A stretch of DNA of 64,000 bases from assembly GCA_963575745.1 (NCBI GenBank), contig CAUYUJ010000001.1, forward strand, positions 1,488,001 to 1,552,000, read 5' to 3'. This stretch comes from Prorocentrum cordatum (Eukaryota). The stretch's first letter is position 1; each line of letters starts with the position of its first letter. The position numbers and the translations under genes are program-made. Positions 12,737 to 55,281 of the stretch are shown in pieces. The notes below the pieces were generated by a model, which worked only from the letters and a program-made list of their open reading frames with translations, was not told the origin of the DNA and searched no databases.

Positions 12737-12836
12737 NNNNNNNNNNNNNNNNNNNNNNNNNNNNNNNNNNNNNNNNNNNNNNNNNNNNNNNNNNNNNNNN
12801 NNNNNNNNNNNNNNNNNNNNNNNNNNNNNNNNNNNN
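12737..12836. other. Assembly gap (100 N)
   Basis: Run of N. Confidence 1.
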
Positions 12837-15404: not shown

Positions 15405-15504
15405 NNNNNNNNNNNNNNNNNNNNNNNNNNNNNNNNNNNNNNNNNNNNNNNNNNNNNNNNNNNNNNNNNNNNNNNNNNNNNNNNNNNNNNNNNNNNNNNN
15501 NNNN
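15405..15504. other. Assembly gap (100 N)
   Basis: Run of N. Confidence 1.
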
Positions 15505-22159: not shown

Positions 22160-22560
22160 ACAGTTGGATCCAGGCCTAGTAGGGTCCTAGTAGAGCTGGA
22201 CCTAGCCTTTGCAGGATGCCATGAAAGCTGGTCAGGGCCGGAGTAGGGTGCCATTAAAGCTGGATCGAGCCCGAGTAGGGTTCTATTGGAGCTGCAGCCA
22301 GACCACAGTGCGATCCCATTAGAGTTGAATCGAACAATAATACCATCTTAATAGAGCTGGATCAAGCCCGTAGTAGGAGCCAAGTAAAGTTTGACCGAAC
22401 CCGAGAAGGAATATACCAGAGCCAGCCATTAGTAGAAGGATTCGATTGTGGATCGAGCCGTTGTAGGATTCCGTTCGAGCTGAATCTAGCCTGTGTGGGA
22501 TCTTGTTATAGCTGATTGAGCCCTAGTAGAATTTCACTAGAGTTGGATAGCCCTAGTGGC
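22160..22560. repeat. Highly degenerate ~32-bp minisatellite
   Basis: (G/A)AGCTGGATC.AGCCC..GTAGG-like units about every 32 bp. Confidence 0.65.
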
Positions 22561-36044: not shown

Positions 36045-37113
36045 TGCACGCCCCTCCGGGGCTGGAGAGACCGCCCACCCCGGCACGGGCGCGTTCAGGG
36101 AGGGCCTCCTGGCCTGGCGTCCGGGAGCCAGCCCGCTCACAGCCACCCTTTTTGGGCCGACGAGCGGCAGCGAAACCTGTTGCCTCTTCCTCGTCCCCTT
36201 CCAGTTTTGGACCGAGGCTTTTGCGGAGCTGCCGCGCATCTTGGCAGGTCTAGTCGTCGCCGGCTTCAGCGCACCAATCACGTCGATTTGGTGTGCGATG
36301 AGATTGCCGGCGCGCTGGATGACGCGCATCTCGGCTCACGTTGCCCACGGTCGAACAGTGGCCCTTCGGCGAGCCAGCAGGCCAGTCTCAACCTGATACG
36401 CCAGTCCGTCTTGGCCACGGGCCCGCCGCCGGACGACATGAGTGGCCCAGGGGCCCTTCGAGCGCTCCGGGCGGAGAGTGCTTGCGGCGAGGGCGCCGTG
36501 ATCGCCCCCCTCGGCATGGGCGCCGCCCACCTGATCGACCTGCCGGCTGCTGGGTCGACTTCGCGATCACTCGAGCACCTGGCGGGAGAACGGGGGAGCG
36601 AGATTGCTGAGCGCTTAATTCATTTGCGCTTGCCTGGATCCGCTGGCAGGGAGAATGCCAGACTTCGTGGGCCCGCTTGACCTTACTTACTCTGACCTCT
36701 GACCTCGCCCTCAAACGGTCGCCGGCCCTGTGCGCGGAGTTGCTGCGACGGATGGCCGACTCCGACCTCTTCGAGTGGCGCTTGACGGGCGAGGTTTCGC
36801 GCGGGCTGTTCTTTGTATATAAGGAGTCAGGTGACCTTCGTTTGATAGTTGATTGGCGACTTCCATCATGCCACTTTGGCGACAGCGACCCTGTGTCGCA
36901 GGCCTCGGGGGCCGCATTTTCCACCATCGAGGTTGACAGCGCTACGCCAGTCCAGATCGGCTCGGTCGATATCGCAAACGCCTTCTATAACGCGCAGTTG
37001 CCAGAAGCCTCCGAGAGATGTTCGCCCTTCCTCGAGTCCGAGCCGACCCGGCGAACGCATCGTCGGCCCAAGGTCGGGCCATCAGACGGAGCCAATGCCT
37101 CTATCCAGTCCTG
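36044..37113 (+). pseudogene. pol 5' part (RT N-half), with stops and frameshifts, cut by the DNA transposon
   Basis: GLFFVYKESGDLRLIVD and VDIANAFY; after a shift near 37008 it reads LREMFALP...CLYPVL. Confidence 0.88.
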
Positions 37114-37137
37114 CTTGGATGGCCGCGGCGGTTGCTA
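37114..37137 (+). repeat. Left terminal inverted repeat
   Basis: CTTGGATGGCCGCGGCGGTTGCTA. Confidence 0.95.
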
Positions 37138-37362
37138 AGTACTTAACATACTTACTACGCTAAGTTAAGTACTTAGTAAGTAGTTAGCGGACTTAGCTAA
37201 GTACTTACTCAGTCATTACTAAGTGGCCCACTTAGTAATGACTTAGTAAGTACTTAGCTATCCACTTATAACCAGTTAGCTAAGTGCTTAGCGCACTTAG
37301 CTAACCACTTATAACCGCTTATAGCTAGTTTGCTAAGTAGGTTATAAGTGACTTAGCGGTTA
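37134..37362. repeat. Left subterminal repeat region (ACTTAG/CTAAGT motifs)
   Basis: Dense direct and inverted CTAAGT/ACTTAG; AT-rich relative to the flanks. Confidence 0.85.
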
Positions 37363-38016
37363 CATTGCACTTGTTATCCAAGGGCCATGCGCAGGGAAAA
37401 AAGGTAAATCCACGTCTTGAAAGAGCTGAGTTTGTTCGTTGAGCGCTGCAGCGCTGCAAATTTTGCATTTTGATTTGGAGTCGGTGTCCTGGATTTTTGC
37501 TCTAAATATGAGAAGCGCTGCAGCGCTGCCTTCGGATTTATATGAACATGGAGCGCTGCGTGCGCTGAATATGAAGCGCTGCAGCGCTGAAGGTTGAGTT
37601 AAATGCATGTTTTCTAGTTGCGCGTTGTTCGGATCTTCATTTTCGCCCAGCTCCGTTTGCATGGAATTTGAATGCACATGTCAATTATGTTTTGTTGTAT
37701 TCGTTGTTTTTTCAATGGTCGCATTGAGCGCTGCAGCGCTCCAAATTTGATAGCACGTATGTTACTTTGCGCTGCAGCGCAAAAAAATGGTTGTCGTCGT
37801 GATGTCGCATCGCGCTGCAGCGCGTGCGCGCTCGTGCTTCATGGGCCTCGGGCTGCAGCCCAGATCAACATTTTTGCTCGCAAGTTGCATGTCCATGCAA
37901 GTCGATGTTCACGCGCACGCCGCGCGACAGCTTGTCTCAAGCTGCGGCCGCGCGCCGCATCCGCCGTCGCGCCCGCGGGCTCGCACGTTGCATTCGGCGC
38001 TATATATAGCGCTGGC

Positions 38017-40893
38017 ATGGCGCTGCAGGCGCGTCAGGAGGAGCAGATCTTGCAGTACACCGAGGAAAGCAATTCCTCGGGGAGGTTGGCATCGGGGTGG
38101 GATCAACTGAAGGAGTTCCTGCTGGCGGAGGGGCTAGCGCATTACCAGCAGGCCCCACCGAACCAGATGGGCATCGACATTCGGAACCGCAGCGGTTCGT
38201 TAGTGAACCCTGCGCGGGCTCACAATTTAGGCGCGAAGATTTGCGCCCAGGGCTTCGTCTTGGCCAAGACGGCTGCAGCCGCTGCCTTCGAGGCCCCGCA
38301 GGGGGCGCAGTTGGAAGAGACCGCGATGGCGAACGACCGCCTTTCGCGGCTCAGCGGGGGTCGGTGCCCCCCGCTGGACTCATTGCGGTATACGTCAGTG
38401 GGCGGCTCCCACACGAACGTCTTCCTCCGCTGCGTGCTGGCCAAGGCGCCGACCACAGTGAAGGCGCTGGCAGACTCTCGGGACAACATCGACTCCGAAA
38501 AGCTGTGCGCGTTGCATCCGCAACTTGCGACGGCAGTCAAAAAGGGCCTGACGTGGTTGATCATCAAGCACGCGGTGGCCAAAGTGAAGGGCCTCAAGAA
38601 CTTCGTGCAGAGGGCTTTGAACGCCGACGTCAGGGAGGCGGTTCACGAGACCGAGATCATTCGGTCAGGCTGCAGCCTATCCCCACTATAGTATATAGCG
38701 GTATGCAGTAAGGACCAGGATGATGCACGAGGAGGGTGATGAGTGGGAGCGAGTTGGGGAGGAGGTGAGAACGAGGAGCAGGAGCATTATATCTTACCGT
38801 GCTGCAGCACTTGATCGGATCGGCGCTTGCTGCAGGCAGGTGGGCGGATGCTCTTGGCACACAGCCTCGCTGAGGGTTCCAGCAAGCCCGATTGGCGCGA
38901 CATCGCCGAGCAAGCGGGCCACGCGAACCCACCTTGCAAGGCGTGGATCGCTGACTTGTGCAAGTTTGTTGAGCTCGGGCCACAAAACGGAGAACTTCTC
39001 CGTGAAATAGATGAAGCCCTCAAGACCTTCACGAATGTGGACGTCTCGGGGCAAACTTTGATGTGCGGCTCTGAATTCTGGCGCAAGTTGAATTCGATTA
39101 AATGGGGGAAGCACCAGGAGTCGTACCCGTATGTCGTAGCGGCGCTCGTGAAGGCCAACTATTCAGGCGAGCACGTGGTGGATAGCATGTGCAGGACCAT
39201 CCATAAGCTTGTCGGCGCCCCCTTGTAGTGACATGCGCTGCAGCGCATCTATGCATTGCGCTGCATTGTTAGAACTGCGTACCCACCCCTCCCCCCTCCC
39301 CACACACACACACGCACCGTTACATTGCTTTATTCCCAAACGCAATCGCTGAAGCGATGGGCGGATCAAGGCAAACGAGATCGTCCACGTCGCGTCCCGC
39401 AAGGCGGACGTGGCTGCGGCCGACAACCTCATGGCCGACGCAAGGTCGCTCGTGAAGAGGTTGGATATCGGAGCGGAGCAGGGCTTCTTGCACATCACAA
39501 AGTTGGATGTCCGCTGTGCCATGTACCTGGTGAAGAAGCGAGCGCCAGGAGACCGCGCTTTCGGATGCGTAGCAGATATAGCACAGGTATCTTCTCACGC
39601 CACCTTTCGTGTGCTCCTTGCTTCCCTCCCTCCCTGCTTTTCGCCATTCAATGTCGCTGCAGCGACCCTCCAGGGAGGTCTTCCTCCATGTGCTCGGGGA
39701 GCCAGCCCAGCTGCAGATGAAGAGCTTGGGGATCGAGTTCGGCAAGGCGGTGCAGACCGACAAGCAAGGCGATGGCGCACCCGAGTTCCCAGCGAGCGCC
39801 GATGCAGACGCGCCGCGCGCGGCAGCGTCGTCGGCCGCTGAGTTGAAGAGCAACGTCTTCCGCATGCGGCGTGCAGGGTTCGACGTGGGGGAGCACATCG
39901 TCCAGAAGAAGGAGGTGGATGACGTCTTCGAGGTGCTCTCCGTCTCGGAGGATGGGATCACCGCTCAGAAGAAGTTGCACGGCGACCTGGCGGGCGAAGA
40001 GATCTCCATTGCGCGGCTGCAGCCACCCCGCCGCCCGCGGGGAGCAGGGAGGGGGGAGGGGGAGGTAGTAACTGCGATATTGTATTTCCTGTACTTAGGT
40101 TGCAATGGGTTGGTCGATGCGCTGCAGCGCACGGAGCAGTTAGCCGAGCGGGCGGATTGAAGTAAACATATTGCTCGAGAATTACAAGTTGACGTCCAGG
40201 GTGCAGGAGCAGTTGCCGTTCACGAAGGAGCACTTGCCGCCAGCCCACGAGGGTTGGGCGATGGGCGCGTTCAAGGGGGCATGCAACATGGCGCTGCGGC
40301 CCCAAGCGCTGAAGTACCAGGCGAACATTTTGCATGCGCTGCAAGCGAGCGTTCAAAGTGGGTGAGCTCGTCAGACTTGTGCTTCCGCAATCGTCCGCGC
40401 CCCCCTCCGACGACGCCGCGCTGCAGCGCTGCGCGGAGGACGAGGTAGCGAGGATTTCGGGGCACGTCAGGCCGTGGCGACGAGGTCAGTGATGTTACCG
40501 ACTGCGCGCCATGTAGCTCCACGCGGTGGGAGTGGTCGCATTTCAGCCTCGTCCACGCGGGTCAGCACGGGCTGCGTTGCGGAGAGCATCTCGTTGGGGA
40601 AGGTTGGCCTCTACGAGTTCTTCGTGGGCCCGCAGTTCGCAGGGCCCCCCGCTGAGGGGTCGCGGGGCCCCGACGCCTTTGTCAGCCCCTTCTGGGTGGT
40701 GGCAAAGTCCGACTCAGAGCCCAACATGGAGCTCCGAAAGGAGACCGTGACGTTCGGGACAGGCGTCAACAAGGTGCAGGTGGGGGTGCCCCAGATGCAT
40801 AACACTTGCGCCCTGTCCGCGGGCGACTTCCTGGTGGTGAAGCCGTGGCCGCGGCTGCAGCCGCGGCCAGCCAAGAAGCTCAGGACGGCCTGA
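38017..40893 (+). CDS. Multi-exon cargo gene A: N-terminal ParB/Srx-like domain, C-terminal degenerate SET-like segment
   Basis: MGIDIRNRSG..VNPARAHNLGAKICAQGF...SVGGSHTNVFLR; C-terminus PFWVV..SEPNM...VPQMHNTCALSAGDFLV. Predicted exons ~38017-38658, 38848-39198, 39365-39586, 39678-40007, 40156-~40357, ~40445-40893. Confidence 0.6.
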
Positions 40894-41387
40894 GCTGGCG
40901 ATATAGAGGGACCACGCGGGAGGATGAGGCAGGAGGGAGGGGTGATGCGGAGGAGGAGGAGGAGGCAGGGTAAGGTTTGGCATAGGGAGGAGGATGAGGG
41001 GGCTTAAGGAGCGGCGAGCGCACATGACGGCACCGAGCGTGGCCCTCCGATTGGTGTAAACAGTGTGCGGGTTGGTGCGAAGTGCGATACTTGCCGCGGC
41101 GCTGCAGCGCGCGGAACGATTCGTTGCGCCAGCATCGTCGCTGCAGCGACTGTACAATATTGGTGCTGACATCAGCCTTTCCCACAGACATGCCGCTGCA
41201 GCGGCTTCGTCATCACTGTTGTGCTCGATGTGATCGTTGCTCTTCGCTTCATCTTTCACATGCGCTGCAGCGCACCTCATCATGAGCACCTCGTCCGCGC
41301 GCATGTTGCCTCATCACTCCATCGCAGCAATTTTGGCGCTGAAGTGCGACCGCGCTCGGGCTGCAGCCTCGGCGCGCCGCGCGCGCG

Positions 41388-42152
41388 ATGGCGACGATCA
41401 AGCGCGACTGCGTCGTGTTGCACGACAACCGTACGGGGCGCGAGCTGGTCACGGCCGTCGAGGTCATCGGAGACCGCGAGTGCATCACCGTGACCACCGC
41501 AGGTTGGAGCAAGTGGGTGTGCGGCAAGGCTCAGGGCTTGCGAGGCACGATGTTCCTAACGTGGCTGAAAAATCAGCGCGCCGCGTCGTCGGGGCCAACG
41601 GCGCCGACGACGCTCTTCGCTGCAGCGGAGCCAGGCCGCCGCCCGACCACGCGGTCCGGCCGCGCCAGTCGCCAGGTTCCAGTGGACAAGTGCTTCAAGA
41701 CAGTGCAGCTGCCGCCGTTTGGCGATACGGAGGCAACAGAGCTGCAGATTGTCATTCCCCCACCTCATAGGGGGGGGGGGGACAAGCTGCAGGTGGTGCT
41801 GCACGAGAAGGGCGTAGAGTACATCAAGGCCAAATTGCTTCAGGAGGCGGCGGAGGCGGCAGAGGCGAGCACGGTGCTGAAGCGCCCGCGGCGCCACGAG
41901 ACCGACGTTCCTTGCGGCACCCGCATCTATTGGGTGCAGCGGCTCCAAGCTTGGCGGGCCGTCCGCACAGACTGCGGTTGCAGCAGGACGGCCTTGTTCC
42001 GCACAAACCGCGGCTGCAGCAAGGATGACGCTGAAGCGGCCGCGGCGAAGTGGTGCACCGCCGAACTCAAGGATTGCGAAGCGGATGAGCTCCAGGAGAT
42101 GGAAGCGGAGGCGGAGGGCGATGCGGAGGAGGAGGAGGCCGACTCGGACTGA
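41388..42152 (+). CDS. Cargo gene B, 254 aa, C-terminal AP2-like DNA-binding domain and acidic tail
   Basis: Intact ORF; RIYWVQRLQAWRAV...RTALFRT...KDDAEAAAAKW fits the AP2 beta-beta-beta-helix pattern; LKRPRR basic patch. Confidence 0.6.
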   Translation: MATIKRDCVVLHDNRTGRELVTAVEVIGDRECITVTTAGWSKWVCGKAQGLRGTMFLTWLKNQRAASSGPTAPTTLFAAAEPGRRPTTRSGRASRQVPVDKCFKTVQLPPFGDTEATELQIVIPPPHRGGGDKLQVVLHEKGVEYIKAKLLQEAAEAAEASTVLKRPRRHETDVPCGTRIYWVQRLQAWRAVRTDCGCSRTALFRTNRGCSKDDAEAAAAKWCTAELKDCEADELQEMEAEAEGDAEEEEADSD

Positions 42153-42662
42153 GCTGCGGCGCGCTCGGTCGACCGCATCGCTGGGGCGTGCGATCACGGT
42201 CGGCAGTGCGATTGAGAATGGCAGCGAGGAGGACGAGCACGAGGACGAGGGCGAGGAGGAGAAGGAAGAGGAGGATTGGGATAATAATTGCGGATTGTTG
42301 GTGGATCCCCCCAATGTTCGCTACTGTTGGTGTCATTGCGAATCGTTGGTATGATCAAGCGTGCTGCAGCACGACGACACTACGATCAAGTGTGCCTCTC
42401 ACGCGTTGCCGCCGTCGATGTGTGACCTCACGGCGCTGCAGCGCTGACTTACGTTTCGTGTGTTTGGAGTCCATCGTGCTGCAGCGCTGATTTACGTTCG
42501 GGTGTCTGGCGTGCCGATATCAGATTTTTGCGTCGCGCTGCAGCGCTGACTTACATGTTGTGTGTCTGGCGTGTTGATGTAGCGCTTCGATCGCGCTTGC
42601 AGCCCGCATGTTCGCTTGATGTTATTGCATGTGGTTCGCAGCCACCTGTGATCAGAACATCA

Positions 42663-43016
42663 ATGGCTGCCAACATGAGTGCAGCGACGCCGCCATGGCG
42701 GCTTCCCTCGGAGCCAGCGCCGCCGCCGAAGGCGAAGTCCGCGGCATCGGATGCGACATATGCGGCTACCCCCCCTCCTCCGCCGCCGCCGCCGCCACCG
42801 CCGCCTCCGACGTCGACGAGGACCGCGGCTGCAGCCGCCAGTGATGTGCCAGCCCCGCGCGCGGCTGCAGCCGCGCGCAAGCGCGATGCTGAGACCAAGG
42901 TTGGCATGTGGAAGCTTGTGTGCGACATGATTCGGGAAGCGCTTCAGCGCGGGGGCCGCGAGGCAGCGGTTGCGCTGGCAGTCCAGTGCCACGTCGCGAA
43001 GAAGCCGCGGAAGTGA
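42663..43016 (+). CDS. Cargo gene C, small Pro-rich hypothetical protein
   Basis: ATG 42663; C-terminal helical segment KVGMWKLVCDMIREAL...KKPRK. Confidence 0.45.
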   Translation: MAANMSAATPPWRLPSEPAPPPKAKSAASDATYAATPPPPPPPPPPPPPTSTRTAAAAASDVPAPRAAAAARKRDAETKVGMWKLVCDMIREALQRGGREAAVALAVQCHVAKKPRK

Positions 43017-44089
43017 CGGGCGCGCGGCGCGCGCGCGGTCAGTGCTGCAGCGCCACTGTTTCAGTCGGAGACAGCATCGCGACGGCGGCGACGGCGACAG
43101 AGACAACGACGACGGCGTTAAAGACGACGTAATTCAGAGCAGTGCATGCAGGAGAAGAAGGTGGAGGGAGGATGATGATGAGGAGGAGGAGGGTGATCAG
43201 GAGGACGACGACATTGAGGACGACGTTCTGGAACGCCCTCATTTTCACAGGTTCCCACCGCTCGCTGCCAGCACCTCGGAGCAGGGGAAGGGGGAGCAGG
43301 ATGATGATGATGATGAGGAGGAGGAGGAGGAGGAGAAGGAGGCCGAGGACGAGGAGTATGACGAGGAGGAGGAGGAGGAAGACAACCAGTTGGCACCCAT
43401 GCCCCGCCCCCCCGATCCTTCTGCCTATTCCTGCCTCCGCATACTCCCTCTCCTCCTCCTCCTCCTCCTCCTCCTCCTCCTCCTCATCCTCCCTCTCATT
43501 CTCCTACTCCTCCTTCTCCTCCTCCTTCTCCTCCTCCTCCCTCTCCTTCTTCTCCTCCTCATCCGTGTCCTCCTCCTCCTCCTCCTCCTCCTCCTGCCCC
43601 CCCTCCTCCCCCCCCTCCTCCTCTCCCTCCAATCCTCCTCCCCCCCCTCATCCTCCTCCTCCTCCTATCCTGAGGGGGCAGCCCTGGGGAGGTCAATCCA
43701 GTCGTTGGCCTTCGGAGGTTCAGTTGGGGGTGATGTTACTTTGCGGGGTGATGTTACTTTGGGGGGTCAGTCGACTGGTTAGCAGGGGTCCATCGTCGTC
43801 AGCGTCGTCGCCATCGTATTCGTCGTTGGCACCGCCGCTGTTTTTGTTCCGTGCAGCTGCAGCTGCAGCTTCGCGCGCTGCAGCGTCGCGCGCCCGCGCG
43901 CCCGAGTGCAGCTTCAGCTGCAGTGATGGGACTGGTTTCCACCACCACTACCATATGTTGGAGAAGGAGGAGGAGGAGAAAGAAGAGGAGGAGGAGGACC
44001 TCTCCCTCCAACTTATGGTACTGGTGGTGGAAACCAAGCCCATCATGCAGCTTGGCGAGCTGCAGCTTCGCTCGCTGCATCGCGCAGCG

Positions 44090-44653
44090 ATGGCGTCGCA
44101 GCTCGACTACGACGAGGACGCCGGGGAGTTCGCCGTCCTGCGGCCGACGCCGCCTGCGGCGCCGCCGCCAGGGTTCGAGCCGTGGGACCCCGCGGTCGAG
44201 CTCGCTGCCGCCAAGGCGCGGCCGACGTCGCGCGCCGCCCCGTACGGCAAGGGCGGCAGCGACGGCCCACCTTGCAAGGGCAAGGGCAAGGGCAAGGACA
44301 AGGACAAGGACAACGTCGGCGGCCCACCTTGCGGCAAGGGCAAGGGCAAGGACAAGGACAAGGACGGCGGCGGCCCACCTTGCAAGGGCAAGGGCAAGGA
44401 CAAGAGCAAGGGCGGCAAGGGCAAGCTTGTCCGCGACGGGGACCAGCAGCAGCGGCGTGACGGCTGGTTCAACAGGGCGCAGCAGCTCTGCGAGCTGCTG
44501 CTGGCGGGCGAGTACGCCGACGCGGCCGCCCTCGCGGAGGAGTACTACGCTGGCCCAGCACAGGTCTGGGTCGGCGCTGGCGCCGAGGAGGCCGCCGAGG
44601 AGGCGCAGGCGCCCGAGGAGGCGCTGAGGAGGCCGCCGAGGGGCGCCTCATGA
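44090..44653 (+). CDS. Cargo gene D, hypothetical protein with GGPPCKGKGKGKDK repeats
   Basis: ATG 44090; strongly GC3-biased codons; C-terminal RRDGWFNRAQQLCELLLAGEY. Confidence 0.55.
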   Translation: MASQLDYDEDAGEFAVLRPTPPAAPPPGFEPWDPAVELAAAKARPTSRAAPYGKGGSDGPPCKGKGKGKDKDKDNVGGPPCGKGKGKDKDKDGGGPPCKGKGKDKSKGGKGKLVRDGDQQQRRDGWFNRAQQLCELLLAGEYADAAALAEEYYAGPAQVWVGAGAEEAAEEAQAPEEALRRPPRGAS

Positions 44654-45936
44654 GGAGGCCGCGGAGGAGGCCGCGGATGAGGCCGCGGAGGCGGAGGCGG
44701 AGGCGGCCGCCGAGCGCCGAGGGCGCGCCGAGCGCCGAGGGCGGAGGCGGCCGCGCCGAGCGCCGAGGGCGGAGGCGGCCGCCGAGCGCCGAGGGCGCGC
44801 CGCCGAGCGCCGAGGGCGGAGGCGGCCGCCGAGCGGCCCCTGGCGCTGCAGCGCCCGCATGCATGCGCCCGCATGCGGGCGCCACATGAGAGCTGCGGCG
44901 CGGCCGCGGAGCATTCCACTACTGGTGGGCGACGGAATGGGACGGTAACTCAGTAGAGGTAGACAGGGGGAGAGGGGGGACTATAGTAGAGGTAGACAGG
45001 GGGGAGACGTGATATACATAGGGAATGCGAGGGGGACGATGGAGACGCAGCGTGGGGGTGGAGTGAAGACACATTGGAGAGAGACGGTAGACAGGATGCC
45101 CGCTGCAGCGGGTATCCACTCTCCCGTGAGCGAGGGGGACAACGAACGCATAGTGATAGGATACATGCTGTAGCAACCCAACATGTAAGATCAATGGGAG
45201 CAATGGGGGGGTGGATTGGATCAGTTCGCGAGCATAGCTGACGCCGACGCATGCATGTGTTTAGGCCAGGTTATATTTCGTGCGCCAGATCGCGTGGTGC
45301 GCCCGCGCTGTCGCCCAGAAAGGCGCTCCGATATCCTCATCACATCTATCTGCCATCGTCGACGTTCACATCCTGATCCGCTGACATTTTTTCGCATGGA
45401 CTGATGTGCCAGGGGTCGGCCTTGGATTGGCCAGGAAAGTTTGGGGGCACTTGGGGGGGTCCTGGGGCACTTCAGATGGCAAGCCGTCTCGCATCGCATC
45501 GCCCTTCGCCACTCTCCCTGCCCCCCTTCAGCACAGTTCGTTGCGCCGCCGAGTAGCCCCCCCCCATGGCCTCCTGACAGCCTCACCAGCCCCCATCAGC
45601 CTTGTCCTCAGCAGTCTCGAGCCATCGCGACGCTGCTGCAGCAGAACCGTGAGCGTAAATCTTTGCAGTTGACAGCGGTTTCGGCATCGTCAACCTCGTC
45701 GCGACGCTGCTGCAGCAGCGCCGCGTGATGTACTTCGCGCCTCTCTTAGTTTCACTCCCACCTCGAAATCAGCAGTGTGGACAGTGTTCTGGGACTGCGT
45801 GGGTGGGCGTTGGGGTGGGCTGGAGTGCTGGATGTTGGCATCAGGATGGCTGATCTGAGGTCGAACGGGAGCTTCGGGTGAAGCGATCTGAGAGCGTCGG
45901 TGCCCCTCTGCAGAGGTGATGCTGTCTGACAGCGGC

Positions 45937-46087
45937 GTGTCTGTTCAATAGCCCCCTCTATTGAACAGCCACGCCCGTGTCTGTTCAATAGCCCCTTCTA
46001 TCGAACATGCCATGTTCAATAGCCCCCTCGATTGAACAGCCACGCCCGTGTCTGTTCAATAGCCCCCTCTATTGAACAGACACGCCC
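45937..46087. repeat. Four tandem ~40-bp hairpin repeats
   Basis: CTGTTCAATAG-CCCCCT-CTATTGAACAG at 45941 and 46052, with variants at 45981 and 46013. Confidence 0.9.
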
Positions 46088-46915
46088 CTGTCGATGTCCC
46101 AGCTGCCTTCGAGGCTCCCAGATCGCTTCGGTATTTGCTCCTGATCGCACTTCGCGCATCTCCTGAATCCGTCCCGCGCCCTCCTCGGACACCTTCCGTG
46201 TCCCTCCTGTGTCTGCCCGCCCGCCCGCTCCCGAGCTCCCGTGTATACCTATCCGTCTCCCGTGTCTCTCCCGCGTCTCTCCCGTGCCCCTTCCGTGTCT
46301 CCACCTGCCTTCCGTGCGCTCCCGCCCGTGTCCCTCCGCACCGCTCCCGCGTCCGTCCGCCCGCTCGCCCCCGAACTCCCGTGTCCCTCCCGTGTCTCTT
46401 CCGTGCCCCCCCCCCCCGTGTTTCTCCCATGTCCCTCCCACCCCTCCGTGTCTTTCGCACCGTCCCTTCCGTGTTCCTCAAATGATCATGCATCCCCCCC
46501 CCGTGTCCTGCCCGCCCGCCCGCCCGCGCTCGTGTCCTTCCCTCCCGTGTCTCCTCGCATCTCCCCCCGCCCCCCCCCCCCCCCTCCCCCCCGTGTCCCT
46601 CATTATCTCCCTCCTCTCCTTTCCATCACTCTATATCTCTCTCCCTATTGCCCACTACCATGCGTTCCATCATGGTGCGCATGCATAGCGCTGCAGCGCT
46701 TCATGTTACTTTGTGACGATGATTTCTGCTGAGCGCTGCAGCGCTCACGTGTGTTCCTTAATTGCATGCGATCGTTGCGCTGCAGCGCATCTGTACTGTT
46801 GTGGCCTCTCTTCCACCTCAGCAGCCGAGTGCTTCAGCTCTCGCAGTGTGGGAGGCCCTCCCTCGCGCTTCCCCTCGGAGCGTCCGCGCACCCCCTCGCC
46901 CTCGCGGAGGGCATC

Positions 46916-48777
46916 ATGTCTGCCGCGGCTGCGGCCACACCCATCAACCACATCCTGGATAACCTGGACAGCTGCGACGCCTTCTTCGCATCGCAGATCG
47001 GCGTCATCGCCGCCGACGCGATGGCGCAGAGCCAGTCCGCCTTGTCCATGAGCGTGCAGCTGCAGCTTCACAACTTGGGGACGATCGGGGCTGCCCAAGC
47101 AGCTACCCTGCATAATCGAATCACCGCGTCGGGCTTCGCGGACAGCCACAAGGCGCGCCTCAGCGCCGCGCTGGCCGCGCGCGTGGGCACGGCGACGCCC
47201 GCGCTCCAGATGCGCGTGCAGACGCTCGCGTCAGGGCGGCGCTATCCATCGTGCTTTGCACATCGGACCGCCGAAGTGTTATTCACATGTATGGTTTAAT
47301 TGTTTGTTCTGTACTTTATGTATGTTACCATGTTCATGTTTCAAATGTACTTATGTTATCATGCTGCAGCATGCCTGCGTCGATTCGTAGGCTGGTGGAC
47401 TTTACCATGCAGGACTGGGGTTTATTTCGCGACCCCAACCAGAGCGTCGTCGCGAAGGTGCGCGCGTTGATCAAACGTTGCGGTGCCATCGGCTTGACGG
47501 TTCCGAGCGGGAACACGCTGAAAGAGTTGGCGGCGTTGATGGCATGCGCCCATCTTCCAGACGCAAACCCTGGGCAGCTCTACGGGATCGTGACGGAGAT
47601 GAAGGTTTGGGATTCGGCGGGAACGCCTAACGCAGACGCATCGCATCGCGCTGACTGCAGCCAATGCGACGCGGCGCGTCAGCGTTAGGGTTTCCCGACG
47701 AGTCGCCCTTTACAGGGTCAGTTCTTGGCGAGCCGCAGGGGCGCGACGGGGCAAGCGGCGACAGTGACTTGGAATTTCCCAGCAGATCCTCGGCAGCTCC
47801 CTCAGCACATCTTCGACGCGGCGTGCACCGATGCGGACCCGCCGATCGATGTGACGCGCGACCTCGCCAACGTGGCATCGCATCTACGAGGCTGCTGCCA
47901 CCCCGTCATGCGCTGCAGCGCTGATTGTTCTGGATGTCTTGGGTGCTTCGGTGAGCTCGGTCCTTTAGGTCCACCTCGCATAGAGCATGATAGGTTTCAT
48001 GCTACGCGTGCGCCGCTGAAGCGGCCTGCGGGTCTCAACGCCATCAAGGCTCGCGTGCCTCTCAGGCTGACCAACAAGGGCTTGCGGGCTGCCGCCCCAC
48101 CGCATCAGCCGAGCACTGCCATTGTGCCATGGACACCATCGGGGTCACCCTCCGTGCCGCCTGCAGCGCCAATGCAACCCATGGACGCGATGGCCGTGAT
48201 GCAGCAAATGCTGGCAGCGTTTGCGCCACCGCCATCGCCGCCCAACGAGCTGCAGCTGCAGCTCTTCCCGCGCCGCTCTGCGGCGCCCACGGCGAGCCCC
48301 CCCGCGAGTCCCCCCGCGATTGGTGATTCGCCAGCTGGGCCAGCATTGCCAGCGGCGGCGCCAGATGCTGCTGCAGCAGCGCCAACGCCGCCAAACGAAG
48401 ATGCTGCTGCAGCAGCAGACGGAGACGAGGATGCTGTGCTGCAGGCGATCGAGACCTTGGCTGCGGGCAGCGCGAAAGGCGAGCTGCCTCGCAAGGGCAA
48501 GGGCAAGGGCAAGGGCAAGAAGGGCAAGGGCAAGAGCGCGATCAAGGGCAAGAGCAAGACAGGCGCTGGCAAGGGCAAGACGGCGGCCAAGGGCACGGCC
48601 AAACCGAAGGCCAAGGGCAAAGGGAAGGCCAAAGCCAAGGCCAAGGCCAAGCCCAAGGGCAAGGCGGCAGCCAAACGGGGCCAAATGGCACTCGGGTGCA
48701 GCAAATGCCGCTACCTGCCGAATGGCTGCGGCACGTGCCGCGACCCGAACTTCACTGGCCGTCGCGGCAAGCCGTGA
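46916..48777 (+). CDS. Multi-exon cargo gene E with Lys/Ala-rich tail and terminal CxxC-x6-CxxC motif
   Basis: Exons join via a plausible GC-AG intron (acceptor 47390) and a GT-AG intron (acceptor 47715: EMK|GQFL); ends KGKAKAKAKAKPK...LGCSKCRYLPNGCGTCRDPNF. Confidence 0.6.
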
Positions 48778-49517
48778 GCGCGCAACGGGCACTGTCGGCA
48801 TATGGAGGTGAGGATGAGGATTATGAGGGCGAGGAGGAGGATGGGGAGGATGATGAGGAGGATGAGCATGTGGAGGAGAAGGAATGAGGAGGATGGTGAG
48901 GATTAGTGCGAGGTTGGATGGAACGCTGGCCGGTGATATGAACGGTAGTGGCGATGGTCTTGCCTGGCGGTCGCGCGGCTCGCACGGACGACGAGGAGGA
49001 TGAAAGTCAAATATGTTGACGGGTTCTCTTGGATGTGGGCGCTGCAGCGCTGGCGCCTTTGTGTTCAACGTTTGCATCGCCATCATGATCACGATGCAGC
49101 GCTGCAGCGCTCGCTTTCCTGGATGGTGGCGTAGATATTGCGTGCTGTTGTGTTCCGATGCAGCGCTGCAGCGCCTGTCAGACTTGTGGTGCCGTTGTAG
49201 CGTTGGCGCGTTTGTGAGTGTGCAGTTGCAGCCGCGGTGTCCATGTATTGCGTGACGTGCTCGTCTTGAGTGCCAGTCGTTCCTCGTCGATACGCGCTGC
49301 AGCGCCATCATTCGTGATGTCGAGCGTTGTCTCCCGCGTGGTTGTTGCCAAGTCACGCGCTGCAGCGCTGTGATTCGCTCATGTTGCGCGTTGCCGATGG
49401 CATGCCCTCCTCCCCCTCCTCCTCCTCCTCCTCACTTGGCTCGCGCGTCGCAGCCGCCATCGTTCGCTGCAGCGGGTGCTGGCAACGGACCTCCTCCGCC
49501 TCCTCACTGGGCTCGCA

Positions 49518-49948
49518 ATGGCGGCGCGCCGCTGCGACAAGCCGTTCGAAGCGCAAGCGCGCGCCGACCGTCGCGACGAGTTGCGCGAGGCCCGCGCGAG
49601 AGCGACGGCGACTGCTACAGCAGAGGTGAAGGAGGCGCGGAAGAACGCCAGGAAAGCGGAGAAGCAGGTGCAGATCCGCACCGCGGAGCTGCAGGTGGAT
49701 GAGGAGGCGGATGAGAAGGAGGACGGTGGGGTTCATGAGTGTGGCAGGCTACTCCCCCGCTGCAGCGGGGGAGAAGGACGACAGGGGGGATGATCAGGAG
49801 GAGGTGGAAGGCGATGATGTGGGAGGATGAGGAGTATGAGTAGCAGGGTCGGGGTCAGATGGACATCGCCGCTTCGGACGTGGCCAACCAGAAACTCAAC
49901 GAGGCGTTGACCTCGCTGCGGAACGCCAAGAAGATGAAGGTGACCTGA
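49518..49948 (+). CDS. Cargo gene F, two-exon small coiled-coil protein
   Basis: ...IRTAELQ|GT...AG|MDIAASDVANQKLNEALTSLRNAKKMKVT*. Confidence 0.45.
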
Positions 49949-50626
49949 GTGAGGTCGGCCTCGGCGACCGCCTGCTGAAGCATGCTGGTTCGATTGATTG
50001 GTAAAGGCTGGAGGGAACGTGGTTGAGCGTGTTGTTTGAGTTGCGCTGCAGCGCTTCTCCGTGGACCACGGTTGAAAGTTTGCGCGCGGATCATGATGTG
50101 TTAATGTGTTGCGCTGCAGCGCAGTTTCGCTTGCAGTTTCTCGTTGGATGGTGATGTGGCGGATGATGAGGGCGAGTGATATTGATGCTGTTGACGATGA
50201 AGGTGATGGTGACGGGGAGGATGAAGGGACGGGAGACGGATGATGAGGAGGATGGGTAGGTTGAGGAGGAGGATGGGGAGGATGAGGGGGCGCATGAGGC
50301 GGAGGAGGAGGAGGAGGGGGAAGAGGAGGAGGAGGAGGTATAGGAGGGGGAGGAAGAGGAGGAGGACGAGGGGGATGGCGAGCAGGATGGAGGAGGAGGA
50401 GGACGTTCGCGCTGCAGCGCGTCAGATTGTCATCATTGAACGTTAGCGGCGCTGTAGCGCCATGTGCTCCCAGACTGTTGCTTGGCAGTTAGCGCTGCAG
50501 CGCGCATTTGGTTGCTCTCCACGCGGTGCAGCCTCATTTCCATCCGTAGTCGCCGTGGCCCCTAGCGGAGGGGCCCCTCCGCGCGCGCGCAGCGACGGAG
50601 GCAAGCTTGCCTCGGGAACGCGCGCG

Positions 50627-51135
50627 ATGGCGGCAGAGGACGACCGCCCAGCGAAGCTGCGGCGGCTGTCCCGCCTTCGCGCGGAACTGCCATTCATGCA
50701 TTGTAATGCGATGGCGCAATTCCTGGCGTCCGTTAAGCGAGACGGAATCCCCGAATTGGGATCCCGACGCCAGGATATCAGAGACGCTCGGGAGCTCATG
50801 GTCGGTGAGAACACGCCGTGCGGCAAGCTCCACCAGAACATGATAGTCGGGCAGCACACGGTGGAGATCTGCAGTCCAGCAGCAATGCTGTGGTATTGCA
50901 GCGCCCTCCCCGCGATGCAGCCTCTGTGGCAGCGGGCGCTGGAGCTGCCACGCCCGTGGCACATCATCATTTACGGCGATGAAATAGGCGCTGGCAACGC
51001 GCTGGCGCACGTGCAGAACCGCAAGTCCTGGGGCATCTACTGGACGATCGCGGAATTCGGCCCGCAGGCGCTTTCGTCGGAGGACTTTCGCGATAGCGTT
51101 GCTGCAGCAACGATATATGCGGGGGGGGAGGGGGG

Positions 51136-51218
<83 letters not shown>

Positions 51219-53123
51219 CGAGAGAGAGAGAGAGAGGCGCTGCAGCGCCAGTTGTGCTGCGATTTGTTCGCAGGATGCGTGGTTCCAGCTCGCGACGATG
51301 CGGGCCAAGACCGCGAACGACATCCAGCCGCACGGACTGACGATGCTACTGGACGCAATCCTCGCGCAGTTCTGGCCTGATCAGGGGCGCAACTTCAGCG
51401 CAGGCATCAGCTTGCGGCTGCGCCCCGACGGCGCGACGGAGCTCATCCAGATGGACCTCGGAATTTACATGCAGCCGCTGCAGCGGTCGCCGCATAGCAC
51501 CCAAGATTAGTTAGCTTACATGTGCACATGTATATATCCATTACGCCTTCTTGCGTCGCTGCAGCGGCTCTGTCGGATCGCGGACGAGGATGCAATGCAC
51601 CGCTTGATCGGAATGAAAGGTTCGTCAGGAATCAAACCATGTTTTATGTGCCGCAACGTGTTCTTGAAGGGCGAAGTTCGGGATATAGTTGCTTCTGATG
51701 CGACGGGTGTCGCTGTTCACCACTCGGAACCAGATGCGTCGCGGCTGCAGCCGATGACGGCGCCGTTGCTCGATGCCATCTGCAACAGATTGATCGAAGG
51801 GGTCAACATCATGAACAAGGGCGAGTTCCAGGAGTTGGAGCGCCGACTCGGCTGGAACTGGGACCCCCATTTGCCTGAGCGGGTTCGGAAACTCAAGCCG
51901 CTCGAGACAGTCATGTTTGATTGGATGCATTGTATTTTCGTCAACGGTACATATAACATTCTGGTGTTCCAAATGTTTCGAAGGTTGAAGGGTTACTGGG
52001 CGCGCGCAGACGCATATTTCCAGGACTGGTCGTTTCCAGGGCGCCACTCCATCTCCCCCGACACGTGCGCGATCTTCGGCGAGAAGCGCGTGAGGTCCCA
52101 CGTTGACAGCAAGCATTTCAAGTGTACCGCCAGCGAGGGGCTCACAACCATGCAAGTATCATTGCATGCTTCGCGCCCCCGCCAGACCAATAATACATGC
52201 GCTGCAGCGCACGTGAATTTCTGTAGGATATGTACTGCACCCCTCTTGTTCGGACATGCGTTCGCGCGGGCGGATTGACGTGTTTCTTCAGGGAGGTGGC
52301 TAGCGACGCTGCAGCGCCTGCAGTCCGATCGGCTTGCGCAGTGTTCGAGGCGCACACGATCGTTGTGGAAGAAATCCTACGAGTATCCAGGCGTCAGGCA
52401 GACGCGGATAAGCTGCAGGCTGCGGTTAACAGGTTTTTGCTGTCATACAGCAGCGTCTTTGGCAAGGAAACGATGGCGCAGAAGTTCCATTACCTGCACC
52501 ACTTCGCCAACTACGTGAGGCGTTGGGGCCATGTGGCGCTGCCGTCGTGCTGGGTTTTGGAGCGCAAGCACAAGACCAGCAAGCGCTTTGCGAACGCTCT
52601 TCAGGTGGGGGCTGCAGCCTCCAGCGGCTGGGACGCCAATGTCCTGAAGAGCGTCACCGAGCGGCACCTGTGGCAGCTCATGGATGGCGGCACCTTTAAG
52701 GTTAACTGCCTGGTTAACGCCACCAGGCCGTCCAAGGCCATCTCGCGCGAACTGCTGCAGCAGTTCGGGCCTGCGGACTTTGTTACGTCCGCTGCAGCGC
52801 GGCGCCGCTACCACGACGTCAAATACGGCGACGTCGTGCTGTTGGAGGACGGAGGAGGGGAACACATTGCGGCCGAGGTGTTGAAACACCTCTCCTTCAC
52901 CAAGAACGGCCACTACTATGGCTTGAGCTTGGTCCTGCCCTACTTCTTCAAGGAGAAGCTGCACCCGCGCGCCTCCGCGCACGTGCTTGGCGGCGATGCC
53001 GACGCCTTTTGGGCGCACACGGCGAGCATCGTGTGCTCGCTCGCGTGGGCGCCGCGCGAGGGCGGCGGCATCCGAGCGGCGCGCCCGATATGGTCGCAGC
53101 CGCGGTGGTGCGCTTTAGCCTAA
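50627..53123 (+). CDS. CMC/EnSpm-family DDE transposase, four predicted exons
   Basis: IIIYGDEIGAGNAL..RKSWGIYWTI; ADEDA..GMKG...PCFMC; FDWMHCIFVNG; KFHYLHH...RRWG...CWVLERKHK. Intron 1 is GA-AG at 51083-51273 (LSSE|DAWF). Confidence 0.85.
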
Positions 53124-53848
53124 AACGTGGATTCCTTACTGGCGCTGCAGCGCACTTTTTTACATTGCTAAATGCTTCGGTGCTGCAGCACCTGAACGTT
53201 GCATGGTCGACGACTCCTCTTCTCCGCCTTGAAAACGTGGATTCCTTCTGCATTGCGCTGTAGCGCACCTTTTTCATTGACACTTCGGTGCTGCAGCACC
53301 TGAACAGTGCATGGTCGCCGATTCCTCTTCTCCGCCTCGTTCCTCCTCCTCCTCTTGCGCTGCAGCGCTAATGTCGTTGATCAGTGGTGCGGTCGTTCAA
53401 ACTCCTCCTTCCCCGCATCCTCCCCCTTCTCCCCCTCCTCCTCCTGCTCCTACTGCTGCTCCTCCTCCTCATCTTGCCCCCCCTCCCCTTCTCCTCTCCC
53501 CCCCCCCCCCCCTCCATCCTCTGACGAGGGTGGCGTGTGGGGGGGGGGGAGGGGGGGGCGAAGGGGGGGGGGGGGGGGGGGGGAGGAGGAGATTAAAGGG
53601 GGGGGGGGAAGGGGAGAGGAGGAGGAAGAGGAGGAGGAGGAAGCACGAGGAAGGAGGAAACGACGAGATAGCTCAGAGCGAGAGGAGGATGGGAGGGGGA
53701 TGGGGGGGGCGGGGGGGGGAGGCGGAGGACGAGGAGGAGGAGGAGGAGAGAGGAGGAGGAGGAGGCATGGGGAGGAGGCTGAGGAGTGGAGAGAGAGGGA
53801 GGAGCTAGGGGTAGGAGGCAGGTGGAGGAGGAAAGGAAGGAAGGGGAT

Positions 53849-53879
<31 letters not shown>

Positions 53880-54301
53880 TGGGGGGGGGGGGGGGGGGGG
53901 GGGGGGTGGGGGAGGGGGGGGGGGGGGGGGGGGGGGGGCGAAGGGGGGAGCGGAGGCTTAGGAAGGACAGCGGAACGTAGGCGGTGGCACTTAGGAGGCG
54001 CTTGGCTTGAGGATGGCTGCCGAGTGGTGTGTGTTAGGGCGTATATGAAACATGATGACGAGGGGAGGAGGGCGAGAGGAGGAAGGCGCGGAGTAAGGGG
54101 ACGGAGGGGAAGGAAGGGAAGGCGGAGGAGGAGGTAAGGAAGAGGAGGAGGAAAGGAGGAGGAGATGGAGGGAAGAGGAGGGAGGGGGAGGAGAGGAGGA
54201 TGAGGTAGAAGGATGAAGGGGAGGAGAGGAGAACGCCGCCCGCGCGCGTGCGGCTTACAGGCCGCGCGGGGGGCGCGCCCTCCCTTTTCCCTTTGCTTCG
54301 C

Positions 54302-54428
54302 GGCTCGGGATCGCCATCGAAAAACATATCAAGGCATGTTTTTCGATGGCGACCCCGAGCCATGGGGCAGTCTCATCTCGGAGGACCCCTCGGGGATGTC
54401 GGGGATCCTCCTCGACACCCCCGAGGGG
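54302..54428. other. Two adjacent long inverted repeats (hairpins)
   Basis: 54302-54327/54336-54361 (25/26 paired) and 54386-54405/54409-54428 (18/20). Confidence 0.85.
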
Positions 54429-54914
54429 TGGGACGGGCTCGGCAGCCATCGGCCGTCGCACGTCGGTCGTCCCCCAAACCCTCTGGGTTGTGGACGACGG
54501 CTCCGTGCGGTGGGCCGCTCTGGCTGCCGAGCGGCGCGCGGGGACCCCCCGCCGCCCGCGCCAGCGGCAATGCCGCTGGAGATGGCGGCGCAGAGCGCGG
54601 CGCAGGCGAACTTCGCCTGCGCCGCGCTCAGCCGCGCCAGGCTGCCGCTGGACGCGGCGGCATTGCAGGGTCGCCGCGGCCGAGCGGCCGTCTTGGCGGA
54701 GGCGCGCCCGTCGCCGCCTCCGACGCCGCCTCCCCTTTTCTCCTCCTCCTCATGACTCCTCCCCGTCCTCCTCCCTACTCTCCTCTCCTACGACACTCTC
54801 CTCCTTCTCCTCCTCCTCCTCCTCCTTCTCCTCCTCCTCCTCTCTCCCCCTCCTCTTCCTCCTCCTCCTCCTCCTCCTCTTCCTCCTCCTCCTTCTCCTT
54901 CTCAGAGTCCGCGA

Positions 54915-55257
54915 ACCACTTAGTAAGTCCGCTAACCACTCAGTAAGTAAGCTAGCTAGCGGACTTACTATGTGGTTACTAAGTGGTTAGTAAGTGGTTA
55001 CTGGGTGGTTACTAAGTGGCAGCTAAGTGGTTACTAAGTGGTTAGTAAGTGGTAGCTAGAGTGGGGACTTAGCGAGCTAACCTCTACTAGAGACTTAGCA
55101 AGGTTAGCCTCCAGCTATAAGTGGTTAGTTTCTCCTACTAACCAGTTGTAGCTGGTTATACAACTTACATCAGACTTACAACACTTATAACCTACTTACA
55201 ACTCACTTGTACGTACATACTAAATCCTCTAACCCCCTAGTATCCGCGCTAACCACC
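54915..55257. repeat. Right subterminal repeat region (ACTAAGTGGTT/ACTTA motifs)
   Basis: Same motif vocabulary as 37134-37362. Confidence 0.85.
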
Positions 55258-55281
55258 TAGCAGCCGCCGCGGCCATCCAAG
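55258..55281 (-). repeat. Right terminal inverted repeat
   Basis: Reverse complement is CTTGGATGGCCGCGGCGGCTGCTA. Confidence 0.95.

Follow-up and report, generated by a model that had tools for sequence, protein, structure and literature searches.

What does it mean when a single palindromic word is written dozens of times through one mobile element? The question is raised by a 64-kb stretch of the genome of Prorocentrum cordatum (assembly GCA_963575745.1, contig CAUYUJ010000001.1, positions 1,488,001 to 1,552,000 of the forward strand), which was analysed as a whole and is called the window here, with coordinates counted from its first base. The element is a DNA transposon with terminal inverted repeats (TIRs), 18,168 bp long and lying at 37114..55281, and the word is the octamer GCTGCAGC. 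An original prediction, made from the letters of the window, had proposed that the motif saturates the transposon with symmetric, co-varying flanks, and that it is either an iterated self-mark read by an element protein or the footprint of a symmetrising cut and hairpin repair. In the literature seen, no description of the motif or of the transposon family was found, and the passages available of the P. cordatum genome paper mention neither palindromes nor CACTA elements (PMC10666404). We find that the motif is confined to the element almost entirely, is inherited throughout its family and has flanks that change in complementary pairs. Our tentative reading, to which we give somewhat less than an even chance, is a selected stem-loop signal that is read single-stranded, be it as RNA or as DNA.

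One palindrome in one transposon family

The window holds 75 matches to GCTGCAGC, against a mean of 3.01 and a maximum of 7 after dinucleotide shuffling. All but two of these lie at 37445-53366, and the two outside, at 22291 and 27434, are about what chance would place in the other 46 kb of the window, the sequence against which element-specificity was measured. The extended 12-mer GCGCTGCAGCGC occurs in 31 exact copies where 0.02 are expected, every one within 37443-53368. Ranked among the palindromic 8-mers of the element, GCTGCAGC comes first with 73 copies (0.57 expected by composition), followed by CAGCGCTG with 12, and the hexamer CTGCAG is found 87 times inside the element and 13 times outside. 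The claim that the motif saturates the transposon thus stands, with 73 of 75 cores and 31 of 31 exact 12-mers inside when the comparison is with the remaining 46 kb. The motif-bearing interior extends over 37443..53368 and carries the 73 cores, the effective motif being N1-3 GC TGCA GC N'1-3; neither the first 330 nor the last 1,900 bases of the element contain GCTGCAGC.

The gaps between cores are clustered, with a median of 135, a mean of 221 and a standard deviation of 208, which rules out a regular spacing. Reading the list of tandem repeats against the list of sites placed about ten of the 73 cores in tandem-repeat rows; tandem duplication as the source of the counts was rejected on this ground. 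The exact 12-mers are concentrated in the spacers that adjoin genes (37443-37823, 46688-46788, 49039-49368, 50043-50503 and 53142-53368), and the GC content around them is lower than around the other forms (55.6% versus 61.1%).

Is the word peculiar to this copy, or does it belong to a lineage? An alignment of seven relatives, used to scan public metagenome contigs, retrieved 33 loci of 1.2-12.8 kb, 123.6 kb in total, whose proteins are 24-99% identical to the query relative P0007. Together these loci contain 104 copies of GCTGCAGC, where 0.03-0.13 would be expected per locus, and 23 of the 33 have at least two; the densest have 13 copies in 4.0 kb (L007) and seven in 2.2 kb (L027). Over the gene-bearing interior the module reaches 2-5 per kb. 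Two loci, L019 and L021, have replaced GCTGCAGC by CATGCATG, in 36 and 23 copies respectively, and L028 carries ten copies of CACATGTG; no such octamer excess was seen in the four loci that are furthest removed (24-26% identity). We built a maximum-likelihood tree of the transposase pieces from 30 of 34 rows; L030-L033, being very distant or short, were left out. The GCTGCAGC type occurs in all major clades and the CATGCATG type only in the clade of L019 and L021, which has support of 100/100. The transposon family inherits the motif, with a core that was switched in one clade, and related elements use the same palindrome or a cognate one, a point that the original prediction had proposed to check. 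A scan of IMG/VR for two exact 12-mers 20-50 bp apart returned no stretches.

Covarying flanks and a loop-like centre

Complementarity was scored outward from the centre CTG|CAG, and the null was obtained by permuting the letters of the right-hand side between sites. Of the 73 sites, 70, 58 and 43 are complementary at flank pairs 1, 2 and 3, against 30.7, 30.5 and 20.2 after shuffling, and none of 5000 shuffles was as high as observed. The symmetry then stops sharply, the fourth pair being at chance (19/73 versus 18.0). All four base pairs contribute, the first flank pair being C-G at 43 sites, T-A at 11, G-C at 10 and A-T at 6, and the 42 sites that do not have the form GCGC..GCGC are complementary at pairs 1 and 2 in 39 and 27 cases (11.2 and 13.6 after shuffling). 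Inside the element the 12-mer has 31 exact copies, eight with one mismatch and 26 with two; 11 of these 26 are mirrored double changes such as GTGCTGCAGCAC and CCGCTGCAGCGG, and so outnumber the eight single changes. The symmetric, co-varying flanks noticed earlier by eye therefore survive comparison with shuffled flanks, and the palindromes then listed are in place (14-mers at 39653, 41137, 42360 and 47360, 22-mers at 42857 and 49752, and a 16-mer at 51097), together with a 24-bp palindrome at 40846 that was not on that list.

The same symmetry recurs in the relatives, where 88, 60 and 43 of the 104 copies are complementary at pairs 1, 2 and 3. A covariation test on 150 sites, 71 from the window and 79 from the first 10 by name of the 24 remaining loci (203 sites being available), gave a score of 0.423 against 0.154 +/- 0.014 for shuffled alignments, a value that none of 500 shuffles reached; slid controls scored at most 0.178. 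The tested structure was ..(((((((....))))))).., in which the two outermost pairs are near chance. Over the 149 distinct rows the first flank pair is CG in 51, UA in 45, GC in 27, AU in 13, UG in 4 and another combination in 9. Comparison of homologous sites between loci that are 59-84% identical in DNA showed that some sites are kept, that a given site has A-T in one locus, G-T in another and G-C in a third, and that a compensatory pair arises where GGGCTGCAGCCC is aligned to GGGCTTCAGCCC. Among sense-strand mismatches in the first two flank pairs, those of the G-T (wobble) type outnumber those of the A-C type by 22 to 8 (p = 0.008), an excess that hints at which strand is read.

Symmetric arms could also be a mutational by-product. 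The sequence would fold during replication or transcription, an arm would be recopied by quasi-palindrome template switching, and the core would spread by conversion, all without function. The abrupt end of the symmetry past three flank pairs is in keeping with such a process, as is the density of palindromes of at least 10 bp other than the motif, which is about 2.2 times higher inside the element than outside (2.75/kb versus 1.24/kb). So too are the two abundant centre variants described below, which correspond to a G>T substitution at the apex G of either strand. Yet arm copying leaves unexplained why one 8-mer core is enriched at least 40-fold, and why this core is kept across transposases that are about 35-50% identical and is replaced in one clade. 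Nor would G-T intermediates and a 22:8 wobble excess on the sense strand be expected from it, and the sites in coding sequence stay in frame. Furthermore, other 8-bp palindromes can be extended by one pair in 50 of 210 cases outside the element (50 of 113 inside), so there is no general symmetrising tendency in this genome. We consider a functionless origin improbable. The cut and hairpin-repair footprint of the original prediction is likewise disfavoured, since the core is constant, most coding sites are in frame without insertions, and some sites are kept at 59-84% DNA identity. Excision footprints with P-nucleotides were rejected on the constancy of the core, the in-frame coding sites and the conservation of sites across loci.

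The behaviour of the centre differs from that of the stem. The commonest one-letter variants in the relatives are both central-base changes, GCTTCAGC with 62 copies and GCTGAAGC with 33, all others being far rarer. In the 28 de-duplicated loci these centre variants keep a symmetric first flank pair (GCTTCAGC in 34/40, GCTGAAGC in 21/27 and GCTACAGC in 8/10), whereas variants that break the GC stem mostly do not (GATGCAGC in 3/9, GCAGCAGC in 1/13 and GCTGCTGC in 4/13). The centre of the motif behaves like a loop.

It is against this background that we suggest a stem-loop signal under selection. The cis-signal of the family would be a short stem-loop module in which the closing pairs and the centre (GC-TGCA-GC) hardly vary, while the one to three pairs that follow may have any sequence as long as they stay complementary. 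Such a module would act folded and single-stranded, as part of the sense RNA or of the non-template strand of the DNA, and a factor would read the apex and require the stem. Copies of the element rich in modules would do better in cis, through expression, processing or transposition, and for this reason the motif would be kept and renewed over long times. This upkeep would resemble that thought to maintain uptake sequences or HIP1 in bacteria.

Several observations weigh against a stem-loop signal. The CATGCATG clade has no flank symmetry, the first pair being complementary in 7/36 and 7/23 copies, and since this 8-mer alone makes no stable hairpin, it is better fitted by a double-stranded protein site or by pairing between copies. 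Centre variants that are not palindromic are found in either orientation (62 versus 33 over all loci, p = 0.004; 40 versus 27 after removal of near-duplicates, p = 0.14), so a strictly strand-specific reader is not supported. The wobble excess is based on 30 mismatches, the stems are short at 5-7 pairs, and no protein of the element could be assigned to a nucleic-acid-binding fold by means of Pfam, the Atlas or AlphaFold models.

The double-stranded alternative deserves to be set out in full. The palindromes would be duplex sites for a dimeric element protein, the candidates being the accessory protein with its four-cysteine (Cys4) and lysine-rich portions, the product of gene A, that of an 'AP2-like' frame and the N-terminus of the transposase. 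They would form an antenna or self-mark akin to parS/ParB, to the target immunity of Mu or Tn7, or to the subterminal TnpA sites of En/Spm. Sites of this kind may concentrate the element's proteins on its own 18 kb of DNA in a multi-gigabase genome, bridge its ends, or block self-insertion. The cores are indeed perfect 8-bp palindromes, as dimer sites are, the arrays adjoin genes, and only the transposase and one accessory protein are common across the family; the change of one clade to CATGCATG, another fixed palindrome without flank symmetry, agrees as well. In Apicomplexa, the sister phylum, ApiAP2 proteins reportedly bind palindromes of the TGCATGCA type. However, a duplex site offers no reason for unread flank bases to remain complementary at 70 of 73 sites, and it does not account for the surplus of mirrored doubles over single changes. 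The commonest variant breaks the central dyad with flank symmetry kept, and no DNA-binding domain was recognised in any protein of the element. We therefore regard duplex recognition as rather unlikely, if the more natural account of the CATGCATG clade. The plain parS- or HIP1-like dimer site of the original prediction fares no better, as matched flank changes and tolerance at the centre with symmetry retained are left unexplained.

The motif in exons, introns and gene borders

The motif is also found in protein-coding sequence. The homology-supported coding DNA of the element (4,524 nt) contains 12 cores, against 1.4 after synonymous codon shuffling; none of 1000 shuffles reached 12, the maximum being 6. 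The excess in exons exists at the nucleotide level and is not a by-product of coding. These cores make use of tolerant codons, being translated as Ala-Ala-Ala, Leu-Gln or Gly-Cys-Ser (Cys-Ser), and compared with homologues they are mostly substitutions that keep the frame (SRLQP versus SKLVL, TSAAAR versus TAVCAR), one site falling on a 3-residue insertion. The sequence KTAAAAAFEAP is specific to the Prorocentrum lineage and stands in place of the KTLGATAFEAP of relatives; sites have therefore been gained at the expense of residues. Selection or drive on a module of 10-14 bases can reshape the amino acids of a transposase and its partner. We also counted the motif with its two centre variants in 24 loci, after dropping nine of the 33 (five near-duplicates and the four most distant), and found 1.69/kb in coding and 2.13/kb in non-coding DNA.

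The placement of modules around introns and gene ends raises the possibility that they are RNA-processing signals, which in a long primary transcript would label the ends of introns and the borders of genes, or pair them, for splicing, trans-splicing or 3' end formation. The intron of gene A opens exactly with GCTGCAGC after ..TCAG, using a GC donor, and has CTGCAG 4 nt before its acceptor. GC is the commonest splice donor in P. cordatum, at 51.4% according to the passages available of the genome paper (PMC10666404). The introns of the transposase gene have cores near both ends (51101/51239, 51477/51558 and 52201/52308), arrays lie behind stop codons at 39235 and 53142, and behind the transposase stop of L003, L004 and L001 there are RTGCTTCAGCAY arrays in one orientation. 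Against such a role, the density in exons is near that of non-coding DNA, and the exon borders themselves were taken from predicted protein models, not from RNA. Moreover, the intron at the conserved position carries a marked CTGCAG-centred palindrome of at least 10 bp in only 4 of the 17 loci listed (L003, L017, L027 and the window). We think it quite improbable that RNA processing is what the palindromes serve. The RTGCTTCAGCAY arrays consist of four or five modules each (L004 4609-4700, L003 2941-3031, L001 3015-3111). The first transposase intron of L001 and L002 contains a 26-bp perfect palindrome of unrelated sequence, ACCCGGTGCTACATGTAGCACCGGGT. Introner elements, repeated inserts that themselves make up the intron with a target duplication at its splice sites, were considered and rejected: the palindromes are modules of 10-14 bp found in exons, spacers and introns alike, and the first transposase intron keeps its position between loci with content that is unrelated.

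The composition of the motif brings DNA modification into view. If the palindrome were the preferred substrate of a modification enzyme, the mark would silence or protect the element. The 12-mer GCGCTGCAGCGC offers symmetric sites of both kinds, two CpG and two CHG, and decayed copies of the motif are C>T changes (GCGCTGTAGCGC at 50449 and 53255). Differences between copies in run X1 are C>T or G>A in 92 of 178 cases, split 44 to 48 and so without asymmetry. Dinoflagellate transposons carry 5mC and 5hmU marks, as stated in the part seen of a preprint whose reported 5hmU motif is TG-rich (GTTGTTGTTG) and unlike the palindrome (bioRxiv 10.1101/2023.11.30.569493). An epigenetic target does not explain the covariation of flanks, and heavy methylation would erode the motif, not maintain it; no methyltransferase or dioxygenase domain was found among the element's frames with Pfam. 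This account seems to us highly improbable. The 40 contig differences listed, from a total of 254, include none in cores where about 1.5 would be expected, a number too small to show conservation of individual palindromes.

The element, its proteins and its precedents

If a factor of the element reads the stem-loops, which of its proteins might that be, and what kind of element is it? The locus is best explained as a single copy of an 18.2-kb DNA transposon of the cut-and-paste kind, present many times in the genome of a Prorocentrum-type dinoflagellate. Alignment of its two ends gives TIRs of about 25 bp, with up to some 26 bases nearly identical. The left TIR (37114..37139, + strand) starts CTTGGATGGCCGCGGCGG..., its first 26 or so bases nearly equalling the reverse complement of the right end, and the right TIR lies at 55256..55281 on the - strand. 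The ends begin CTTGGATGG (CTTGG) and not CACTA or CACTG. Behind them lie subterminal repeats free of GCTGCAGC, on the left at 37136..37350 (TAAGTACTTAGC or CCACTTA type, with TAAGTACTTAG-type arrays behind the TIR) and on the right at 54906..55230 (TTACTAAGTGG units). The boundaries agree with breakpoints in contigs of other sequencing runs, which have unrelated flanks up to 37114 and beyond 55283, one contig fusing 37009 with 55282. Contigs placed on the window show the element in four DNA runs, and because the majority of the thousands of matching contigs are 90-95% alike, the element must be multi-copy. At 40334 all four runs have 29 extra bases, including a CTGCAG, that are missing from the window; compared with the common form, this copy has thus lost a short internal stretch. 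The insertion site is a degenerate reverse-transcriptase gene of a retroelement, with frameshifts of its own, parts of which remain at 36799-37113 and 55284-55682. Its upstream flank reads DIANAFYNAQLPE.. and its downstream flank RVIPMGWKLS... If a target duplication of 2 bp, 'TG', is assumed, the translations ..LYPVL and RVIPMGWKLS.. join in a single frame, and this frame and the contig ends suggest that insertion probably produced such a duplication. Insertion of a giant virus or virophage with a promoter motif was ruled out by the introns, the TIRs and the lack of viral matches.

The transposase-like gene (50627..53123, + strand) has about four exons, at 50627-51067, ~51250-51459, ~51583-52149 and ~52257-53120, as delimited by tblastn with the relatives P0001, P0003 and P0006 and by alignment; palindromes occur in its exons as well as within its introns and close to their ends. 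Among named proteins, those most similar to the frames at 50.4-53.1 kb are unnamed products from P. cordatum itself, from four different models, at 64-96% identity over 21-80% of the 255-residue query; the marine metagenome relatives are 26-38% identical. Neither the window frames nor eight relatives match Pfam, and no significant match to the Protein Data Bank (PDB) was obtained, a profile search with the transposase alignment returning only an insignificant match to Flp (E 0.76). The Atlas model of the relative P0009 reaches a TM score of 0.64 against two clusters that have Transposase_21 (PF02992) in 93% and 41% of their members, and a feature search matched, at 0.93, a cluster with 38% Plavaka. 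Since these neighbours by predicted structure carry Transposase_21 or Plavaka, the protein is probably a distant DDE enzyme like those of CACTA and KDZ elements by fold, and not a proven member of either. Its invariant histidines are spaced HxxxH, and no HUH motif was seen.

The accessory gene (46916..48777, + strand) contains introns; its protein has a conserved domain in the middle, a tail rich in lysine and, at the C-terminus, the motif LGCSKCR..GC..CR. Its frames at 47116-47685 and 47689-48774 match L004-L008, L019 and L021 by tblastn, upstream of the transposase genes there, and L005 has an intact homologue. The accessory and transposase genes are the only ones common to the element and its distant relatives. 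Nothing in Pfam matches the accessory protein, and no usable Atlas match was found. Its C-terminal cysteine motif (..NGC..CR..) is written through a palindrome in two lineages, as GCGGCACGTGCCGC at 48728-48741 of the window and as GGCTGCAGCC at 722-743 of L007.

The remaining genes were those in which the original prediction had placed its readers. Gene A (38017..39228, + strand; exons 38017-~38665 and ~38840-39228 around the intron described above) had been called ParB-like by eye alone. P0016 and P0017 are 93-98% identical to it; relatives end ..IGCS.., reading through the same palindrome. Gene A and five relatives gave no Pfam match at E <= 5 and, even as a profile, no PDB match at E <= 10, and an AlphaFold model with a mean confidence (pLDDT) of 42.7 is too poor for use; its identity as ParB-like was not confirmed. 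Several frames between 39.5 and 45 kb have no assigned identity. One of them is the 'AP2-like' open frame (41388..42152, + strand), the C-terminus of which resembles AP2 by eye alone. It has four relatives among 1.84 billion representatives, its AlphaFold model (pLDDT 39.5) is unusable, and searches with 41388-42149 gave no Pfam match and no AP2 chain in the PDB, so this second identity was not borne out either. More broadly, 102 stop-to-stop frames of at least 100 residues in the element gave no Pfam match at E <= 0.05, and 17 long open reading frames gave only domains of a long interspersed nuclear element (LINE), outside the transposon. The notion of an iterated, element-specific mark is upheld and strengthened, the motif being heritable and switched in its core in one clade, but the ParB-like and AP2-like readers proposed for it are not supported.

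Motif arrays accompany these genes along the element. Seven cores, six of them exact 12-mers, lie upstream of gene A at 37443..37861, followed by the 16-bp GCGCTATATATAGCGC at 37997. Three cores at 42433..42546 are set in repeat units of about 50 bp (..GCTGCAGCGCTGAYTTACRT), three exact 12-mers precede the accessory gene at 46688..46788, and five occupy a spacer at 49039..49368. Upstream of the transposase gene, 50043..50503 contains four exact 12-mers, and the 16-bp GAGGCAAGCTTGCCTC follows at 50598, shortly before the ATG. Downstream of the transposase stop, at 53142..53368, a 108-bp unit repeated twice has five cores and one decayed C>T copy. Both 16-bp elements are perfect palindromes of another sequence than the motif (37997-38012 and 50598-50613); the start codons of gene A and the transposase gene follow them at distances of 5 and 14 bases, respectively.

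Iterated palindromic cis-motifs are of a known kind; the place of this one is unusual, and the comparative support for it unusually clear. The nearest precedent in composition is HIP1 (GCGATCGC), described, in the passages seen, as a cyanobacterial 8-bp palindrome over-represented tens to hundreds of times, both in and between genes, and kept by selection (PMC5861425). The two share a GC-rich palindromic octamer, an excess of an order of magnitude or more (here 73 versus 0.57) and a presence inside genes. They differ in that HIP1 is genome-wide in a bacterium, whereas the present motif belongs to one eukaryotic transposon family and has covarying flanks and an alternative core; spread into ordinary genes was not seen, the other 46 kb of the window holding two cores. 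The sites of parS are fixed duplex palindromes, unlike the motif, whose flanks vary but covary and whose centre tolerates variants. In structure, REP/BIME sequences with their RAYT proteins and the hairpin ends of IS200/IS605 are comparable: each is a short palindrome, conserved in one part and covarying in its stem, that a transposase-type protein binds as a folded single strand. These lie outside genes, in bacteria, and go with HUH (tyrosine) transposases. The likeness lies in a transposon-associated palindrome with a covarying stem; the difference is that the element is eukaryotic and of DDE type, without an HUH motif and with HxxxH histidines, and that its exons are included.

Eukaryotic DNA transposons also offer comparisons. 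En/Spm (CACTA) and Ac have short subterminal repeats, bound by transposase or TnpA within a few hundred bases of the ends, which are not covarying palindromes. Like them, the element has a short iterated motif as well as subterminal repeats (37136-37350 and 54906-55230), but GCTGCAGC avoids the ends and fills the interior. The TIRs, the probable 2-bp duplication, the two-gene core and the structural neighbours recall CACTA/Mirage/Chapaev and Kyakuja-Dileera-Zisupton/Plavaka elements, from which it differs in having no Pfam match at the sequence level and in ends that read CTTGG, not CACTA. The PstI palindromes of Neurospora mitochondria and the GC clusters of yeast mitochondria are dispersed, GC-rich and built on CTGCAG; they belong to organelles, lie mostly between genes and are regarded as mobile inserts. 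The resemblance in many dispersed CTGCAG palindromes flanking eukaryotic genes is evident, yet here they are nuclear, bound to a transposon and present in reading frames mostly without insertions. Finally, the packaging stem-loops of single-stranded RNA viruses and the uptake sequences of Neisseria and Haemophilus are many small signals in coding and non-coding sequence, as the motif is, and persist by helping the molecule on which they lie to propagate; packaging signals combine a conserved apex with variable stems. To our knowledge there is no capsid or uptake step for a cut-and-paste transposon.

It is tempting to speculate that large transposons of dinoflagellates, and perhaps of other plankton, use a lineage-specific 'hairpin code' that a factor of the element reads to recognise self within a gigabase-scale genome, the word switching from GCTGCAGC to CATGCATG when the reader changes. 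We hold this wider proposal to be doubtful. If true, it would give eukaryotes a transposon-borne equivalent of REP/RAYT or of uptake sequences, and mobile DNA a new form of cis-recognition, in which a stem-loop word is written hundreds of times per element copy set, protein codons included. Iterated palindromes such as HIP1 and REP are an old puzzle in bacteria, and here a comparable signal is tied to one eukaryotic mobile family. Its function is directly testable because there are dozens of diverged lineages, a natural switch of specificity and only two conserved candidate readers. In practice, the motif is a simple marker with which to find and delimit a transposon family without a Pfam match, in dinoflagellate genomes as in plankton metagenomes.

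Several other features of the window may be recorded. A scan of the 64 kb with Rfam and for tRNAs gave no match. A LINE-type retroelement on the + strand at 16567-21355, with weak matches to endonuclease/exonuclease/phosphatase, reverse-transcriptase and RNase H domains, shows no excess of GCTGCAGC. Two assembly gaps of 100 N each, at 12737-12836 and 15405-15504, lie in a region of strong GC skew. Within the transposon, the right part, where the palindrome is absent, consists mostly of long poly-G, (GGA)n and (CTC)n tracts (53380-54230 and 54740-54905); similar low-complexity tracts occur at 43278-43666, 48810-48903 and 50238-50403, and the contig depth on such tracts is enormous.

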